DNA of 22,116 nt. Origin: Candidatus Eiseniibacteriota bacterium (lineage in GTDB: Bacteria > Eisenbacteria > RBG-16-71-46 > JABDJR01 > JAWXBZ01). The stretch lies in contig JAWXBZ010000165.1 in the NCBI GenBank assembly GCA_034440375.1, forward strand, positions 1 through 22,116. The letters are read 5' to 3'. Each line of letters begins with the position of its first letter. Positions within the stretch are counted from its first letter, which is position 1. A program made the translations under genes and the position numbers. Positions 2,548 through 19,939 of this stretch are shown here, one piece after another. The notes below the pieces were generated by a model. That model did not search any database and was not told the DNA's origin. It saw nothing but the letters and a program-made list of their open reading frames with translations.

Positions 2548-3615
2548 TCAGCCGGTTCGTCCGTGTCGATGCCGGTGGTGGATATCGGGGTAGTGCGGAT
2601 GGGTATGTTCCAGGGGCTCGTGCCGGTGCCAGTGGGTGTGCGGCTCGCCGGGCGGATCGTCCGGACCATGTTCGTGCTGATGGTGAATGTCGTGATGATG
2701 CCGGTGCCGATGTTCCAGTGGCTCGTGAACGTGGTGGTGCGCATGGGCCTCGGTCAGATGGATCCAGAGACCGATGGCCATGAGCGCGGCGGCGCCGAGG
2801 ATCAGGGGCGTGAAGGGCTCGCGCCAGAGAATCAGCCCGGTGGCCGCGCCGACGAACGGGGCGAGTGAGAAGTAGGCGCCGGTGCGCGCCGTCCCCAGAT
2901 CCCGCAGGGCCGTGATGAACAGCACGAGGCTGATGCCGTAACTCAGGAGTCCGAGCAGCAGGGCGCCACCGACCAGCGGCACCGGGGGAAGCGCCCCGCC
3001 CCGCGCGAGTCCGATCGCCAGGTTGACGCTCCCGGCCACGAGTCCCTTGAGGGCCGCGGTACGAACCGGATCCGACGCCGACACTTTCTGGGTGAGGTTG
3101 TTGTCGATGCCCCAGGCGAGGCACGCTCCCGCCACCGCCAGCGGACCCGCGAGCGATCCCACGGCCAGCCGTCCTTCCCATGACAGGAGCGCGCCGCCTG
3201 CCACGATGGCCAGCATGCCGACGATAATCCGCCGGTCGGCATTCTCGCGGAACACGACCCAGGCGATCAGGGCCGTGAAAACCCCTTCCAGGTTCAGGAG
3301 CAGCGAAGCCGACGACGAGGTGGATCGTTCGAGGCCGAACATCAGGAGGAAAGGTCCGATGATCCCGCCAAAGAAAATGGCGCCGGCCAGCCATGGCCAG
3401 TCACGCGGAGATCGCGTCTCCTTCGAAGTCGTCGGCGCGCTTCGACCGGTGCGACGGATGAGAAACCAGAGGCCAAGGCCAAGCCCGGATCCGAGGTAGA
3501 GCAATCCGGCGAGCACTTGAGGAGAAGTAACACCAAGCAGCCCCTTGGCGATGGGCGTCGAGATCCCGAACAGGATCGCGGCGAGCAGGGCGGTCAGGAC
3601 AGCCGGTCGATTCAT
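2548..3615 (-). CDS. EamA/DMT-family transporter with His-rich C-terminal tail (CnrT-like metal exporter)
   Basis: 355 aa with about 10 hydrophobic segments and EamA motifs (LAAILFGISTPIAK, ASLLLNLEGVFTALIAW, LAWGIDNNLT, LGTARTGAYFSLAPFVG). The last 70 aa contain 26 His. AAAGGA RBS. Confidence 0.9.
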   Translation of the reverse strand: MNRPAVLTALLAAILFGISTPIAKGLLGVTSPQVLAGLLYLGSGLGLGLWFLIRRTGRSAPTTSKETRSPRDWPWLAGAIFFGGIIGPFLLMFGLERSTSSSASLLLNLEGVFTALIAWVVFRENADRRIIVGMLAIVAGGALLSWEGRLAVGSLAGPLAVAGACLAWGIDNNLTQKVSASDPVRTAALKGLVAGSVNLAIGLARGGALPPVPLVGGALLLGLLSYGISLVLFITALRDLGTARTGAYFSLAPFVGAATGLILWREPFTPLILGAAALMAIGLWIHLTEAHAHHHVHEPLEHRHRHHHDIHHQHEHGPDDPPGEPHTHWHRHEPLEHTHPHYPDIHHRHRHGRTG

Positions 3616-3761
3616 GGTGTCGATCCTTTCGTTCGGCAGGTGAACGTGTGCCGGTTCTCGTCATCTTGAGAGCTGGAGACGACGCCTGGCAAGCTGGCAG
3701 GATCCGGTGGTCCAGGCCCAGGTGATTGTAGTGAGTGCCTTCGACGTGATACGACTTATGG

Positions 3762-4175
3762 ATGAACGTGAGCGGAGCAAGACGGTTCAGCCTCGGGATC
3801 CTTTCCGGGATTCTGCTCATCTGGGCCATGCTGGCACCCGCCGCCCATGGGTGGCTGCACGATGCGGTTCCGCCGGGGCACTCCCACGAGCCGGAGGTGC
3901 CCGCTCATCACCATGACGACGGTACCCCGCCGGATGCCCATGGGGACAACCCGGCATTGGTCGCCGACCACTTCGATCATCACCATTATCAGACGGACCT
4001 TGCGGGCGCTCGACCTCGCGCCCAGGCCAGCGCCCTCGCGCCATGTCCGATCCAATGGCTCTGCGCAAGGCCGCCCCTCCTTTCGACGCTGACCGGCCGT
4101 CAGGCTGACGGTCAGCCGGGGCCAATCCCCACATCCCAACGACCCGCGGCACCCCGGGCTCCCCCCACGACCTGA
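3762..4175 (+). CDS. Putative leader/ribosome-arrest peptide (DUF2946/CruR/CutF-like layout): signal peptide, His-rich segment, Cys pair, C-terminal RAPP
   Basis: 137 aa. Hydrophobic N-terminus (LGILSGILLIWAMLAPAA), 12 His in residues 29-75, C95/C101, Pro-rich linker, ends PRAPPTT-stop (RAPP codons 4155-4166). First ORF upstream of the RND operon. Confidence 0.72.
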   Translation: MNVSGARRFSLGILSGILLIWAMLAPAAHGWLHDAVPPGHSHEPEVPAHHHDDGTPPDAHGDNPALVADHFDHHHYQTDLAGARPRAQASALAPCPIQWLCARPPLLSTLTGRQADGQPGPIPTSQRPAAPRAPPTT

Positions 4176-4209
4176 TCGTCCTCTTCACGAAAAGCTGATT
4201 CCGTGACGC

Positions 4210-4316
4210 CCCCGACCTCCTCGGGGATATCTGTGGTCGCTCGATCCGGGCCGCAGTGGACGCGTCGCCTGCCCAACGCTTGTTCGCACGTGGTCCCACA
4301 CGGGTCCACCCGGAGG
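4210..4316 (+). promoter_or_regulatory. Structured inter-cistronic RNA that can occlude the SD of the OMF gene
   Basis: Hairpin CCCCGA-[CCTCC]-TCGGGG (4210-4226) presents an anti-SD loop. TCCGG (4245-4249) and GTGGAC (4256-4261) are complementary to CCGGA (4310-4314) and GTCCAC (4304-4309), overlapping SD GGAGG (4312-4316). Pairings read by eye, not computed. Confidence 0.4.
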
Positions 4317-4322
4317 ATGTTC

Positions 4323-5657
4323 ATGCCGTTTCGTTCCCCTCGAGCCCGCCGACTGGCTTCGGCACGCCTTGCCGTATTGACCGGCATCTTTCTTCTGTTC
4401 ACCGGTCCGGCGTATCGCCTGCGGGCCTCCGAGACGACAGGCTCCCTGAATACCGATGATCGTCCGGAGCTCCGGCTCTCGCTGGACGACGCTCTGGGGC
4501 GCGCGCGCCGTCAGAATCCGGGTGTTCGTGCCAGCCGCGAGGCCGAAGCAGCGGCCCTGGGACTCTTTCGTCAGGCTGGTGCCTGGCCGAATCCCGAGTT
4601 TCAGTATGAGCGGGAGCAACTCAAGGAATCGGGAGTCGCCACAACAGAGCAGCGTGTCCAGATCGTTCAGGAGTTGGACTGGAGCGGCGCCCGGGGAGCC
4701 CGGCGCACCGCCGCCCGTCATCGCCGCGAGGCCTCATCGGCCCGCGTTTCCATCGCCGAACTGGATCTCGATCTGGAGGTTCGCCGGCAGTACGCCGCGC
4801 GCGCGGTGGCCGAGCGTCACGTCACGATCGCCGACTCGCTCGTCAGTCAGTTCGAACGGGCCGTGGCCTCGAGCGAAGAGCGTCGGCTCGCCGGCGAGGC
4901 CTCGGACTACGAGGTCCGCCGACTGCGGATCGAGGCGGCTCGGCTGCGGAGCGAGTCCATGGCACGACGGACCGAGCTCGATGCCTCCCGCATCGGCCTG
5001 CCGTTGATGCTCGGACTTCCGATCGATTCGGTCCGCGTGATCACCGACTGGAACGAGCTGGTTCGATTGTCGCCTCTCGGTGCCTGGCCGGATTCGGAGT
5101 TGCCGGATGTCGTGGCGAACCACCCGGAACGGCTCGAGATCGATCGGGAGCGTCAGGCGGCGGCGGCCGAGCGCCACAGCGTTCGCGCCTCGCGGTGGGC
5201 CGGTCCCAGCCTCGGCCTGGGCTGGAAGTGGAGCCGACTCGAGCCGACAGGGCAGGCCGACGGGCCGATTGTTTCCATAGCCATCCCCCTTCCGCTCTGG
5301 AACCGGTCGGCCGGCCAGGTGGACGCGGCCGAAGCGGAGATCCGGCGGCTGACGATCGAAATGGACGGCATTGAACGGCGCCTGTCCGCCGACCTGCGTC
5401 GCATGTGGGAGGCCGCCCGTTCCGCGGACGCGCGCCTCGCGGAGCTGGACGAATTGATGGATACCGAAATGCCGTTGCTCCTGACCACTGCGGAGACGGC
5501 CTGGCGCGAGGGGGAATTCACGCTGCTCGAATGGCTGGATGCTGTCCGGGCCGCGGCCGACCTGGAATCCGAGCATCTCGCACTGCTGCTTCAACGATTC
5601 GTTCGTCGGGCCGAGCTCACCCGTGCCCTGGCGCGTTTGACCATGGAGGCCTCATGA
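4323..5657 (+). CDS. TolC/CzcC-family outer-membrane efflux protein
   Basis: LSLDDALGRARRQNP...QAGAWPNPEF and SIAIPLPLWNRSAG...AWREGEFTLLEWLDA are typical OMF motifs. Start reassigned to ATG 4323 (GGAGG 6 nt upstream, signal-peptide-like N-terminus). Confidence 0.9.
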   Translation: MPFRSPRARRLASARLAVLTGIFLLFTGPAYRLRASETTGSLNTDDRPELRLSLDDALGRARRQNPGVRASREAEAAALGLFRQAGAWPNPEFQYEREQLKESGVATTEQRVQIVQELDWSGARGARRTAARHRREASSARVSIAELDLDLEVRRQYAARAVAERHVTIADSLVSQFERAVASSEERRLAGEASDYEVRRLRIEAARLRSESMARRTELDASRIGLPLMLGLPIDSVRVITDWNELVRLSPLGAWPDSELPDVVANHPERLEIDRERQAAAAERHSVRASRWAGPSLGLGWKWSRLEPTGQADGPIVSIAIPLPLWNRSAGQVDAAEAEIRRLTIEMDGIERRLSADLRRMWEAARSADARLAELDELMDTEMPLLLTTAETAWREGEFTLLEWLDAVRAAADLESEHLALLLQRFVRRAELTRALARLTMEAS

Positions 5658-7150
5658 CCATTGGCAGAACCCTTCGATCATTGCTGCCGGTACTGGCGCT
5701 CTGGGCCGCGGCCTGCGCGGGACCGGAAAAGGCGGCGGACTTGTCCGCACCCGAACTGCCCGGCTCGTCCGTCACCCTCTGGACGGCGTCGACGGAGCTC
5801 TTCATGGAAGTACCGGCATTGCTCGTGAACCAACCCGAAAAGTTCGCGGTCCACCTGACACGTCTCTCGGATGCCACGCCGCTCCGGACGGGACCGGTGA
5901 CCTTTCGCTTCAAGCCGGTCGACGGCGGCGAGGCGCTGGTCGTCATGCAGGCCGAGCCGCGGGCGCCGGGAATCTTCGGCCCCGCCCCGTCATTTGCGCG
6001 AGCCGGGACATACGACCTGGTGATCGAGATCGCGAGTCCCGATCTGACTGATCGGATCGAGGTGCCGGGCCTCACGGTGTACGCAGCGGCGGCCGACGTT
6101 CCACACGAGCATGGCGAGTCAGACGCGGGTGGCATCGCTTTTCTCAAGGAGCAGGCCTGGAAAACCGAGGGCTTTCAAACGGCGTTCGCCACCACTGGCC
6201 GTCTCGCGGAGATCGTGGCCGCGCCGGCGAGAGTAACTCCCGCGGCCGGTTTCGAAAGTTGGATCACGGCCCCGATCGCGGGACGATTTGATCTGGCGCG
6301 TCCGGACGCGGTCACACCGGGCCGCATGGTCCGAAGGGGTGAGACATTGGCCCGACTCTGGCCCATGCCCGGGGACGGCGGCTCCTCGTTGCCGGAGGCG
6401 CGCCGTGAACTGGCGGATGCTGAGGCGGAAATGACGCGGGTGACACGCCTCTCGAAGGCCGGCGCCATCCCGACCCGCCGGGTCGCCGAGGTCGAGAATC
6501 GGCTGCGGGCCGCCCGCGAATCCCTGGCAGGACTGCCAGGCAAAGCCAGCAGCGACGGTTCGGTCCAGTTGATAGCAGCCATCGATGGGCAGGTGGTGGA
6601 GGTTCGCCAGGTGACCGGCGTCCGCGTCGAACCGGGTGAACCGCTGATACGGATCCTGAACCCGCGGCGACTCTGGCTCGTCGTCGACGTCGCATCCCCG
6701 ACCCTCACGTCCCCGGGGGACATCGGTCCCGTGACCTATCGAATTGAAGGAGAGGCGGACTCACGCCGCTCGGGCGATTTCGTCGGGTCCGCCCCCGAGA
6801 TTGATCCCGTCACGCGCTCGCGGAGGCTCATCTTCAATCTCGACAATAGCGCTGCCGACATCCAGGCCGGAAGCCTTGCCCAGGTGGAATTGCCCACCGG
6901 CCAGGAGCAGGACGGCGTACTCATCGCGGCCAGCGCCGTCATCGAGGAAGACGGTCAGCCCATCGCGTACGTTCAGGTATCCGGCGAATCGTTCGAACGC
7001 CGAACGCTGACGGTGGGCGCCCGTAACGGGGATCAGGTCCTTGTCCTTGCGGGCATCAACGCGGGCGAGCGCATCGTGACGGGCGCCGCCTTCCAGATTC
7101 GCCTGGCCTCCCTCTCCACGTCCGTGCCGGCGCACGGCCACGCCCACTAG
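5654..7150 (+). CDS. RND periplasmic adaptor (MFP), probable lipoprotein with an extra N-terminal domain
   Basis: ATGA overlap with the OMF stop and GGAGG upstream. Lipobox-like LWAAAC. MFP motifs ITAPIAG, LIAAIDGQV and GESFERRTLTVG...GINAGERIVTGAA. Ends HGHAH. Confidence 0.9.
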   Translation: MTIGRTLRSLLPVLALWAAACAGPEKAADLSAPELPGSSVTLWTASTELFMEVPALLVNQPEKFAVHLTRLSDATPLRTGPVTFRFKPVDGGEALVVMQAEPRAPGIFGPAPSFARAGTYDLVIEIASPDLTDRIEVPGLTVYAAAADVPHEHGESDAGGIAFLKEQAWKTEGFQTAFATTGRLAEIVAAPARVTPAAGFESWITAPIAGRFDLARPDAVTPGRMVRRGETLARLWPMPGDGGSSLPEARRELADAEAEMTRVTRLSKAGAIPTRRVAEVENRLRAARESLAGLPGKASSDGSVQLIAAIDGQVVEVRQVTGVRVEPGEPLIRILNPRRLWLVVDVASPTLTSPGDIGPVTYRIEGEADSRRSGDFVGSAPEIDPVTRSRRLIFNLDNSAADIQAGSLAQVELPTGQEQDGVLIAASAVIEEDGQPIAYVQVSGESFERRTLTVGARNGDQVLVLAGINAGERIVTGAAFQIRLASLSTSVPAHGHAH

Positions 7151-7159
7151 GAGCGACGC

Positions 7160-10100
7160 ATGCTGAATCGATTGATTGCCTGGTCGCTCGCGAATCGCGG
7201 AATGGTTCTCGTCCTGGCTGGCCTGTTGCTGGTGGCCGGAACCTGGACAGCCACCCGCACGCCGGTGGATATCTTCCCCGACCTGACGGCGCCGACCGTC
7301 ACGATCATTGTCGAAGCCTCCGGCATGGCCCCGGAGGAAATTGAAACCGTGGTGACATTTCCGCTGGAATCCGCCGTGAATGGGGCCCCGGACGTGCGCC
7401 GCGTCCGATCATCCACCGTCACGGGCATCAGTGTCGTCTGGGTGGAGTTCGAGTGGGGCGTCGACATCTTCCGAGCTCGCCAGGCCGTGCTGGAACGGAT
7501 CCAGGGCGTGGCATCGGCCTTCCCGCCGGGTGTTGACGAACCCATCCTCGCGCCGATCAGCTCCATCATGGGCGAAATCCTGATGGTCGGACTGGGCGGA
7601 ACCGCCAGTCCGGAAGACCTTCGCTCCGTAGCCACCTGGGAGGTACGACCGAGGCTCCTCGCGATGCCCGGCGTGGCCCAGGTCATTCCTATCGGCGGCC
7701 ATGTTCGCGAGTACCAGGTGCTGATCGACCCGGTGCGCATGGGGGCCGCCGGCGTGACGCTGGATGAAGTTCTCCGCGCGGCCGGCGAAGCGGGCGTCAA
7801 CAGTTCCGGCGGAGTGGTGGTCAGCAAGGGACAGGAATACCTGGTCCGGACACTGGGCCAGGTGCGCGGCACCGGCGACATAGCCGGCACGGTGGTGGCC
7901 GTGCGAAACGGTGTACCGCTCCGCCTCGGGGATGTGGCCGAGGTCATGATCGGCCCGGCGCCCCGGTTCGGCGACGGCTCCGTGAACGGGAAACCGGGTG
8001 TCGTCCTGGCCGTCCAGAAACAGCCGGGCGCCAACACACTGGCGCTGACCCGCGACATCGACCAGGCGCTGGAGGAGATTCGATCACGGCTCCCGCCCGG
8101 CATGACTCTACATACCGACCTCTTTCGCCAGTCGAGTTTCATCGAGCGAGCCATCGAGAACGTGGTCGAGGCCCTGCGGGATGGCGCGCTCCTGGTCATC
8201 GCCGTCCTCGCGGTCTTTCTCTGGAATCTACGGGCGACCGCCATTTCGGTCCTGGCCATTCCCCTCTCGCTGTCCGCGGCCTTCCTGGTGCTTCACGTGC
8301 TCGGCCTGACCTTGAATACGATGAGCCTCGGGGGGCTGGCCATCGCCATTGGTGCGCTGGTCGACGACGCCATCATTGATGTCGAAAACGTCGACCGACG
8401 GCTGCGGGAGAACCGGCGCCTGCCGGTATCCGACCAGCGCCCGGTCATGACCGTCGTCTATGACGCCTCCCGGGAGATCCGCGCCTCCATCGTCAACGCC
8501 ACGGCCATCATCATTGTTGTCTTCCTCCCGCTCTTCTTCCTGGGCGGTGTCGAGGGGCGGCTGTTAAAGCCGCTCGGCGTGGCATACATCGTCGCACTCC
8601 TGGCGTCGCTCCTGGTCGCCGTCACCGTGACGCCGGCCCTGGCCTCCTGGTGGCTGGTCGGGCGGAAGGACGCACCGCCGCGCGGCGACAGCGCCGTCGT
8701 CACGGCCCTCAAATCGGTTTACCGACGCCAGCTGGCGTGGGTGCTGGCCCGACCGCGACGGGTGATTCTCGGCGCCGGTGTGGCGCTCATCGGCGCCCTG
8801 GCCGTCCTGCCGTTCCTTGGCAGCTCGTTTCTTCCTGAATTCAACGAAGGCGCCCTCACCATCTCGGTCGTGACGGTGCCCGGGACATCTCTCGACGAGG
8901 CCAATCGGATCGGACTCCGCGTCGAGAGCATGCTCCTGGCTCACCCGGAGGTGGCGGCCACCGACCGCCGCCAAGGGCGCGCCGAACTGGATGAGCATGC
9001 CCAGGGCGTCAATGCCGGGGAAATCGATGCACGATTGCATGACGGTGTCGATCGCGACGAACTGCTGGCAACGCTTCGGGAGGAATTCACCTCGCTGCCC
9101 GGCACGAACATCACGATTGGCCAGCCGATCGGGCATCGCATTGATCACATGCTGTCCGGGACCCGCGCCAGCATCGCGGTCAAGCTCTTCGGTCCGGACC
9201 GGCAGGAGTTGCGTCGCATCGGGACACTGATCGTCGAGGCGATGCGGGATGTCCCGGGCCTCGTGGATCTGCAGTTGGAACCGCAGGTCGACATACCCCA
9301 GATCCAGATTACGCCCGATCGGCCAACCCTGGCCCAGTACGGCCTCACGGTCGGCGATTTGAGCGGAAAGATCTCGACGATGGTGCGCGGCGAGGCTGTG
9401 GCCACGATCCTGGAGGAGGGGCGGCCCCTTGACCTGGTCGTCCGACTTGCCGAAGCCGGGCAGCATTCACCGGAAAGTCTGAAAGCCTTGTTGATCGATA
9501 CGCCCACGGGCGCCCGGGTGCGACTGGATCGTCTGGCCCAGGTGCGCGTGGATCGAGGCGCGAACGCCATCTCCCGCGAAAATGCCCGCCGGAAAATCGT
9601 GATCCAGGCCAACGTGGCCGGTCGCGATCTGGGTGGTGCCGTGGCCGAGACGCAGCGCCTCATCAAGCAAAGTGTTCCGCTTCCAACCGGGTACCATCTG
9701 GAGTACGCCGGGCAATTCGAGAGTCAGATTGCCGCCGCCCGTCGGCTCGGGATTCTGTCGATCCTTTCGGTGGCAGCCATCTTCATCATCCTGTTCAGCG
9801 AGTTTCGATCCGCCCGCATCGCGGCGGTCGTCATGGTCAACCTGCCGCTCGCCCTGATCGGCGGCATCCTGGCGGTCCTGGCGACGGATCGAATTGTCTC
9901 GGTCGCATCGCTGGTCGGATTCGTCACGCTGTTCGGTATTGCCACCCGCAACGGCATCCTGATGATCAGTCATTTCCGTCATCTCGAGGCGGAGGGTGTG
10001 CCCCGGAGTGACGCCATCTTCCAGGGATCACTCGAACGACTGTCGCCGATTCTCATGACCGCGCTCACGGCCGGGCTGGCCCTCGTTCCGCTGGCGCTGA

Positions 10101-10264
10101 GCGGCGGCGAACCGGGCAACGAAATCCAGACGCCGATGGCCGTCGTGATTCTTGGCGGCCTGGTGACCTCGACGGCACTGAACATGGTGGTCGTTCCGGC
10201 GCTGTATGCCCTCTTCGGAGATCGCGAGCGTGAGCGAAGCGGTCAGGATCCGATGCGGCGATGA
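7160..10264 (+). CDS. CusA/CzcA-family heavy-metal efflux RND permease
   Basis: 1034 aa. PVDIFPDLTAPTV, NTMSLGGLAIAIGALVDDAIIDVEN, GIATRNGIL, ERLSPILMTALT, GNEIQTPMAVVILGGL. AGGAG RBS. Confidence 0.95.
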   Translation: MLNRLIAWSLANRGMVLVLAGLLLVAGTWTATRTPVDIFPDLTAPTVTIIVEASGMAPEEIETVVTFPLESAVNGAPDVRRVRSSTVTGISVVWVEFEWGVDIFRARQAVLERIQGVASAFPPGVDEPILAPISSIMGEILMVGLGGTASPEDLRSVATWEVRPRLLAMPGVAQVIPIGGHVREYQVLIDPVRMGAAGVTLDEVLRAAGEAGVNSSGGVVVSKGQEYLVRTLGQVRGTGDIAGTVVAVRNGVPLRLGDVAEVMIGPAPRFGDGSVNGKPGVVLAVQKQPGANTLALTRDIDQALEEIRSRLPPGMTLHTDLFRQSSFIERAIENVVEALRDGALLVIAVLAVFLWNLRATAISVLAIPLSLSAAFLVLHVLGLTLNTMSLGGLAIAIGALVDDAIIDVENVDRRLRENRRLPVSDQRPVMTVVYDASREIRASIVNATAIIIVVFLPLFFLGGVEGRLLKPLGVAYIVALLASLLVAVTVTPALASWWLVGRKDAPPRGDSAVVTALKSVYRRQLAWVLARPRRVILGAGVALIGALAVLPFLGSSFLPEFNEGALTISVVTVPGTSLDEANRIGLRVESMLLAHPEVAATDRRQGRAELDEHAQGVNAGEIDARLHDGVDRDELLATLREEFTSLPGTNITIGQPIGHRIDHMLSGTRASIAVKLFGPDRQELRRIGTLIVEAMRDVPGLVDLQLEPQVDIPQIQITPDRPTLAQYGLTVGDLSGKISTMVRGEAVATILEEGRPLDLVVRLAEAGQHSPESLKALLIDTPTGARVRLDRLAQVRVDRGANAISRENARRKIVIQANVAGRDLGGAVAETQRLIKQSVPLPTGYHLEYAGQFESQIAAARRLGILSILSVAAIFIILFSEFRSARIAAVVMVNLPLALIGGILAVLATDRIVSVASLVGFVTLFGIATRNGILMISHFRHLEAEGVPRSDAIFQGSLERLSPILMTALTAGLALVPLALSGGEPGNEIQTPMAVVILGGLVTSTALNMVVVPALYALFGDRERERSGQDPMRR

Positions 10265-16727: not shown

Positions 16728-19928
<3,201 letters not shown>

Positions 19929-19939
<11 letters not shown>

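Follow-up and report, generated by a model that had tools for sequence, protein, structure and literature searches.

Locus and leader anatomy

The window analyzed here, a 22,116-nucleotide stretch of contig JAWXBZ010000165.1 of Candidatus Eiseniibacteriota bacterium, carries a small ORF that is followed, across a spacer of 147 nt, by a three-gene heavy-metal efflux operon. The features needed for the discussion are these:

3762..4175, + strand: leader ORF of 137 aa, comprising an export signal, a His cluster, a variable linker and RAPP-TT-stop (translation)
3762..3851, + strand: predicted export signal, residues 1-30 (sequence and hydrophobicity filter)
3846..3986, + strand: His cluster, residues 29-75, 12 His, putative metal-binding part
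4044..4064, + strand: Cys95-x5-Cys101, not conserved (sequence and homologue comparison)
4125..4202, + strand: C-rich, G-poor stretch, possible Rho loading site (base composition)
4155..4166, + strand: RAPP codons (sequence; by analogy, P site 4161-4163 and A site 4164-4166)
4173..4184, + strand: predicted anti-Shine-Dalgarno arm, formed by the stop codon with its immediate 3' flank (folding)
4312..4316, + strand: Shine-Dalgarno (SD) sequence GGAGG of the outer-membrane factor (OMF) gene (sequence)
4323..5657, + strand: outer-membrane factor, OEP, PF02321 (Pfam scan)
5657..7150, + strand: HlyD-type membrane-fusion protein (MFP) with a lipoprotein-like N terminus and a His-rich C-terminal end (Pfam/NCBIfam scans)
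7160..10264, + strand: CusA/CzcA-family heavy-metal RND pump, ACR_tran (TIGR00914 cut-off passed)

Translation of 3762-4175 (+) confirms what a first-pass annotation had read from the letters: a hydrophobic start, 12 His, Cys95/Cys101 and RAPP at residues 132-135, the last followed by TT and the stop. The N terminus runs RR, then FSLGILSGILLIWAML, then APAAHG; the signal was called by a simple hydrophobicity filter, which this segment passes, and both the signal and its cleavage are accordingly putative. The His residues stand at positions 29, 33, 40, 42, 49, 50, 51, 60, 70, 73, 74 and 75, so that the last dense His lies 57 residues before the Arg of RAPP, and the Cys pair is 31 to 37 residues N-terminal of that motif. 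At 137 aa, with PP at 134-135, the leader falls inside the limits used for CutF-like proteins (under 150 aa, PP in the last 15 residues, a same-strand downstream gene within 1,000 nt, which here is the OMF gene at 147 nt). It likewise has the R-A/G-P-P near the C terminus of a small secreted upstream ORF by which RAPP arrest peptides are recognized, and the C-terminal RAPP feature of the DUF2946 family.

The ATG of the OMF gene, at 4323, stands 6 nt behind GGAGG, and leader and operon share one orientation, as the first-pass placement of the leader 147 nt upstream of an OMF-MFP-RND operon had implied. The RND pump scores 788 bits against TIGR00914 (CusA/CzcA; cut-off 701). Its scores against ZneA (512 bits) and CusA (498 bits) are nearly the same, and the solved structures therefore do not decide its substrate.

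What in the window might regulate this operon? A CsoR-family repressor gene is present at 2115-2441, and a perfect C/G palindrome, TACCCCCCGGGGGTA, which we take to resemble a CsoR operator, lies at 2502-2516 in front of csoR-copA. We rejected CsoR as the pump regulator because this is the sole perfect CsoR-like palindrome and the interval 3616-3761, before the leader, contains none; for the same reason, the earlier statement that the window holds no dedicated regulator for the pump operon stands. A sigma-70 scan of 3550-4400 gave no promoter-like site, and the spacer contains no terminator-like site.

Pfam and NCBIfam scans of the leader returned no match (Pfam at E<=0.05 or 0.1). Membership in DUF2946 (PF11162) was rejected on this ground and because the leader has no CxxC about 45 residues before RAPP; in the search with the DUF2946 model that the first-pass annotation had proposed, the window leader was not matched, and 1 of 27 homologues was matched weakly (E 0.006). 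Nor does the leader match DUF6769 (PF20558), although 7 of the 27 aligned leaders do, and DUF6769 is found in 35% of the members of a neighboring ESM Atlas cluster. An Rfam scan of 3500-4450 gave nothing at E<=1.

Conservation of the leader before related pumps

A search for related pumps gave 79 loci, of which 23 were dropped for having less than 3.8 kb of upstream DNA and 56 were kept; to count as a leader, a same-strand ORF had to be 90 to 200 aa long, begin with a hydrophobic segment, contain 4 or more His and end in R[AG]PP. Such a leader precedes 33 of the 56 pumps, a count that, like those that follow, shows recurrence among non-independent kin and is not a statistical test. The same filter found [AK][AG]PP in 0/56, R[AG]PP leaders on the opposite strand in 0/56 and downstream leaders in 1/46. 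The 33 positive loci are labeled Gemmatimonadota, Bacteroidota, Balneolaceae, Acidobacteriota and Planctomycetota, plus one Bifidobacterium-titled record. Inspected by eye, 12 of the 23 negative loci have a similar His-rich ORF that ends in xSPP, WQPP, RSPP, LAPP or RPP or carries RAPP more internally, one further His-rich ORF is without PP, and two loci have genes resembling BlaI/BlaR1 types in its place; about 10 of the 56 pump loci show no leader. Among the Gemmatimonadetes, where 27 OMF loci were examined and 24 had enough upstream DNA, the leader is present in 12 of 24, and the 12 leaderless loci look alike and probably form one clade. RAPP is thus conserved in syntenic homologues, one of the points on which the first-pass annotation had staked its reading.

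In an alignment of 27 leader sequences, the positions conserved at 90% or more are limited to the start, three His columns, one Pro and R-x-P-P; no stretch other than R[AG]PP is near-invariant, and it is always C-terminal. A profile built from 26 homologous leaders, with the window leader excluded, gives the window leader 25 bits and matches 2,234 cluster representatives at E<=0.001; R[AG]PP ends 148 of 150 profile matches, which is not independent support, since the profile was built from such sequences. A His-rich segment is present in all 33 strict homologues, as the filter used demands, and the distance from the last dense His to the Arg of RAPP has a median of 84 residues in the profile matches, compared with 57 in the window leader.

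The terminal position of the motif bears on the suggestion that the leader is a small periplasmic metal-binding protein that acts in trans, in the manner of CzcI, and that its RAPP is incidental. CzcI does head czcCBA and is CutF-like without a proline motif, which lends the idea some plausibility. However, an incidental motif would hardly be the one near-invariant stretch, fixed at the C terminus, and proteomes avoid RAPP-type motifs, which are strong arrest signals; we give this explanation very little credence.

Several variants of the leader were seen along the way. Leaders of the same layout end in xSPP at L012, L014, L022, L024 and L053 (Ignavibacteria, Calditrichaceae and Nitrospirae titles), in WQPP at L004 and L039 (Saprospiraceae) and in RSPP at L060 and L074. 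Exported His leaders, some with Cys, also precede related pumps without RAPP (L113, L114, L115, L120, L125, L128, L130, L131, L056 and L064), and these end in ...ILLI, ...ILRL, ...ILRI, ...VLRI, ...RLLL, ...FPLLI or ...LPLLA before the stop; such ends may represent another kind of motif for arrest or termination. A doubled motif, either RAPP...RAPP or with a degenerate first copy, is frequent in Gemmatimonadetes leaders (L133, L134, L136, L137, L139, L141, L142 and L143), and the QRPAAPRAPP of the window may be a worn doubled RAPP. At two Myxococcota/Bradymonadia loci (L044:1861-3335 and L062:3132-4115), other genes stand in the leader's place, which we take to be of BlaI/CopY type and BlaR1 type.

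The Cys pair and the His cluster

The first-pass annotation had placed the His/Cys segment just outside the tunnel of a stalled ribosome; on this geometry, Cys95-x5-Cys101 at the tunnel exit would bind cytoplasmic metal and alter the arrest. A precedent exists in that CruR needs a CxxC 45 residues before RAPP, at a tightly conserved spacing. The family, however, does not keep the pair, and the closest leaders are without it. The pump search gave seven leaders from Gemmatimonadota, each with 0 to 3 Cys (0 or 1 in six of them) and none with CxxC or CxxxC; among the 33 leaders, 6 are without Cys and 5 have CxxC or CxxxC; and among the 150 profile matches, 39 have no Cys and 36 have one, with CxxC in 8 and CxxxC in 2. 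We therefore rejected the Cys pair as the sensor and regard the geometry built on it as highly doubtful. Of the "His/Cys segment" that the annotation had set roughly one tunnel length before RAPP, the His part is conserved and the Cys part is not, and the His cluster lies far beyond that distance (57 residues here, a median of 84 in the family).

The ribosomal exit tunnel holds about 30 to 35 residues and the translocon about 20 more. Because the distance from His to RAPP exceeds the two combined, the His cluster of a chain exported during translation would be in the periplasm at the moment of a stall, that is, in the compartment that such pumps clear.

Other RAPP leaders in the genome

If RAPP leaders serve metal transport, where else do they occur in the same organism? 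We filtered the 3.96-Mb genome for free-standing ORFs of 70 to 220 aa that begin with a hydrophobic segment and carry a given motif at the end. Only 2 RAPP-ending ORFs pass, and each heads a metal-transport operon; six control motifs together gave 3 free-standing matches (RPPA 2, AGPP 1). We take the RAPP occurrences to exceed chance. The second RAPP leader is Cys-rich (G000:C127:14289-14774, equivalent to L112:1290-1775) and heads genes for a lipoprotein, a probable P-type metal ATPase (an assignment based on the N-terminal sequence, hence "probable"), an OMF, an MFP and an RND protein. His-type and Cys-type RAPP leaders thus coexist in one genome, and the His-rich one heads the window pump.

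This pairing is relevant to the proposal that the leader is a secretion monitor like SecM or ApdP. Its arrest would then register envelope stress or the capacity of Sec and simply couple pump synthesis to export, and its His cluster would be a periplasmic metal buffer set free with the peptide rather than the switch. The first RAPP peptides were indeed found before sec genes, and the remoteness of the His cluster from the tunnel suits a buffer. Yet both leaders of this genome combine a His or Cys cluster with metal-transport genes downstream, and metal motifs are needed for regulation in CruR and CutF, and we consider a secretion monitor improbable.

Predicted RNA structure between leader end and pump start

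Folding predicts that the end of the leader pairs with the start of the OMF gene. The predicted helix joins 4177-4184 with 4312-4319 and 4173-4175 with 4321-4323, and it would hide the SD together with the A of the ATG. Pairing of 4179-4184 with 4312-4317 has a probability of 0.84 to 1.0 in five folding windows, and the helix has 15 expected pairs, a value that 0 of 40 shuffles of the stretch reach. As a whole, 4090-4360 folds no more stably than its shuffles do (z -0.08), so it is where the helix lies, and not overall stability, that makes the case. When the footprint of a ribosome whose P site holds Pro134 is masked (the stall register was taken from the arrest data given in PMC10951233 and PMC12992588), the predicted cost of opening the start region falls from 16.5 to 9.1 kcal/mol. 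After the mask, alternative pairings partly cover the SD again, and its unpaired probability is mostly below 0.5.

Do the homologues share this arrangement? Folding suggests that they do in part. Masking the footprint lowers the predicted opening cost by at least 2 kcal/mol in 6 of 19 homologous loci. Start codons in these loci and in the Gemmatimonadetes set below were assigned manually or from the SD score, and some assignments may be mistaken. In Bacteroidota and Balneolota, most start regions are predicted to be almost open (1 to 4 kcal/mol), so that most of these homologues must couple leader and pump differently. In the Gemmatimonadetes loci, 11 of 12 have at least 7 expected pairs between leader end and start, 5 of 12 exceed all 8 shuffles, and the mask gives a drop of at least 2 kcal/mol in 5 of 12. 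Closer to the window, seven of nine leaders from the host genome and its class have about 10 or more such pairs, and a like anti-SD layout is predicted for 6 RSPP/RGPP leaders from the host's class. The consensus helix of those six is nearly invariant with covariation near zero, as expected of close kin, and hence is not proof by covariation.

The same region allows a second reading, modeled on CruR, in which the stalled ribosome covers a C-rich Rho site and its release leads to Rho termination in the spacer; this may act alongside SD masking. Were metal to relieve the stall, as in CruR, the pump would be made under metal limitation. Much at the locus is compatible with such a mechanism. The 147-nt spacer resembles the 162 nt of CruR, the stretch 4125-4202 has the second-highest C minus G among the 78-nt windows of the + strand, the last 7 Pro codons of the leader are CCC in 5 of 7 cases versus 13 of 56 in the RND gene, Rho is encoded in the genome, and many homologues lack SD masking. 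On the other hand, any end rich in Pro codons is C-rich, and the spacer is predicted to be structured, a property of RNA that disfavors Rho loading. Moreover, repression of an exporter by its metal would be counterintuitive, and the predicted anti-SD helix requires no Rho. We judge Rho-based control unlikely, though less so than the other alternatives considered here.

A proposed model for translational control of the pump

The leader has a conserved anatomy, synteny and terminal motif, and from these we are confident that a RAPP arrest leader very probably controls the pump operon. We lean, with less assurance, toward a fuller model in which this is a cis-acting arrest leader of the CutF/CruR kind, with His residues as the sensor and with stalling as the event that turns the pump on; arrest, the identity of the metal and the direction of control are what we infer in it.

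In the SD-masking model that we favor, the signal would route the nascent chain through Sec during translation, and when the ribosome reaches RAPP, the His cluster, at least 57 residues upstream, would be just past the tunnel and translocon. If the leader is translated in full and released, 4173-4184 would pair with the SD and start of the OMF gene, and pump translation would be low. Without metal, pulling by export would clear the RAPP pause, the helix would form and little pump would be made. We posit that a divalent metal bound to the periplasmic His cluster prolongs the pause, so that the SD opens and more pump is made. Such prolongation has been proposed for Cu and CutF, in which Cu-induced stalling is reported (bioRxiv 10.1101/2025.02.05.636593). 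At the window locus, Ni, Co or Zn would be more likely than Cu, a specificity that the His-rich sequence makes plausible.

To generalize the model, could His-type RAPP leaders be periplasmic Ni/Co/Zn sensors that replace two-component systems for one RND subfamily across many phyla? We raise this tentatively, as something that could well prove wrong. In such a scheme, the ligand (His versus Cys) would set the metal and the arrest module would be interchangeable (RAPP/RGPP, RSPP, xSPP, WQPP and possibly an undescribed ...ILRI/LLI-stop). If it were true, metal sensing by arrest peptides would reach beyond copper, the sole metal tested in the work cited here. If the model favored for the window locus is right, many heavy-metal pumps of Gemmatimonadota, Bacteroidota, Acidobacteriota and other little-studied phyla would be regulated at translation by peptides that are mostly annotated as hypothetical, and arrest-based sensing would again extend past copper.

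Relation to known systems

The leader is most likely a metal-responsive ribosome-arrest leader that is functionally CutF-like and not a DUF2946 member. With CutF of Rhodobacter capsulatus and the CutF-like proteins it shares a small ORF, a C-terminal PP and, both putative in the window leader, a Sec-type signal and a metal-ligand cluster. As in CutF, a detoxification gene lies downstream with its SD sequestered by a stem (here a predicted one). It differs from CutF in having a His cluster instead of CxxxC, RAPP instead of PPP and a pump instead of an oxidase, and in that its predicted helix is long-range, across the 147-nt spacer. CruR (Bp2923; DUF2946/PF11162; PMC9426467), as described there, has in common with it a RAPP two to three residues from the end, an export signal (putative in the window leader), a long spacer and a C-rich 3' end. 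Unlike CruR, the window leader has no conserved CxxC 45 residues before RAPP and no DUF2946 match, and it heads an exporter, whereas CruR heads an importer. ApdA/ApdP and SecM share the RAP/P arrest core and the position of an export-coupled leader upstream of a regulated gene, but in the account of PMC10951233 they regulate Sec components and have no metal-ligand cluster.

Published surveys already contain this architecture, and the window locus is a further example of it. According to PMC9973294, RND outer-membrane factors are the commonest neighbors of 5,334 CutF-like proteins, 40% (normalized) of the list comes from Bacteroidota, and File S1 of that work may list the family of the window leader. 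Its His-only clusters (14 and 17) precede HupE/UreJ and not RND genes, and it already suggests Ni/Co sensing. In the source data of PMC12992588, upstream ORFs ending in RAPP versus AAPP number 620 versus 148 before RND adaptors, 530 versus 380 before TolC and 50 versus 7 before CusA/CzcA, with enrichments of RAPP over AAPP given as 16-fold, 5.5-fold and 28-fold, respectively, and proteins of the form signal+PHHHH...LRAPP, several labeled DUF6769, appear before RND adaptors. That work reports arrest in vitro for all seven C-terminal RAPP/RGPP proteins of Streptomyces lividans and for CruR, although with E. coli ribosomes six of the seven yielded mostly full-length product; its main text is without the words "efflux," "RND" and "TolC," and no RND-linked leader is among the peptides it lists as tested. 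From PMC10434189, data on Bacteroides under iron limitation have CusA/CzcA operons shifting in both directions, with no tie to leader type.

It follows that the novelty once claimed for exporter control outside the Proteobacteria does not hold, given that PMC9973294 and the source data of PMC12992588 already show such RND-linked leaders. Together with the Cys geometry, this is the part of the first-pass reading that falls; a conserved exported leader, CruR/CutF-like and heading an RND operon, is the part that survives. What is new in the window is the predicted pairing of the stop codon and its immediate 3' flank with the SD and start of the pump operon. A literature search that took in few subscription journals turned up no experimental test of a His-type leader linked to an RND pump. 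The gain is to come from such a test of the His-type, pump-linked branch and not from discovery, and the window locus offers a clean case for it, with a predicted anti-SD helix that is strong and begins at the stop codon.

Origin of the cassette and neighboring genes

The RND pump is 62 to 67% identical to Gemmatimonadota pumps, and over its first 600 aa it is at most 56% identical to the pumps of 100 sampled relatives, a pattern of identity suggesting that the cassette may have been acquired horizontally. As to the host, a 1000-aa piece of its RpoB is 56 to 60% identical, over the best segments, to four named genomes (two Gemmatimonadota, one Acidobacteriota and one Binatia), and no RpoB of solved structure emerged as a close relative; the host thus probably belongs to none of these groups, and a non-proteobacterial lineage is likely. 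Between csoR-copA and the leader lies an EamA/DMT transporter gene (2548-3615, - strand), directly upstream of the former and divergent from the latter, whose product has a long His-rich C-terminal tail. A second czcA-type gene (16728-19939, - strand) is split near 17492 into ORFs of 815 aa and 254 aa, which is a frameshift or an assembly error, and the head of its operon is cut off by the end of the contig.
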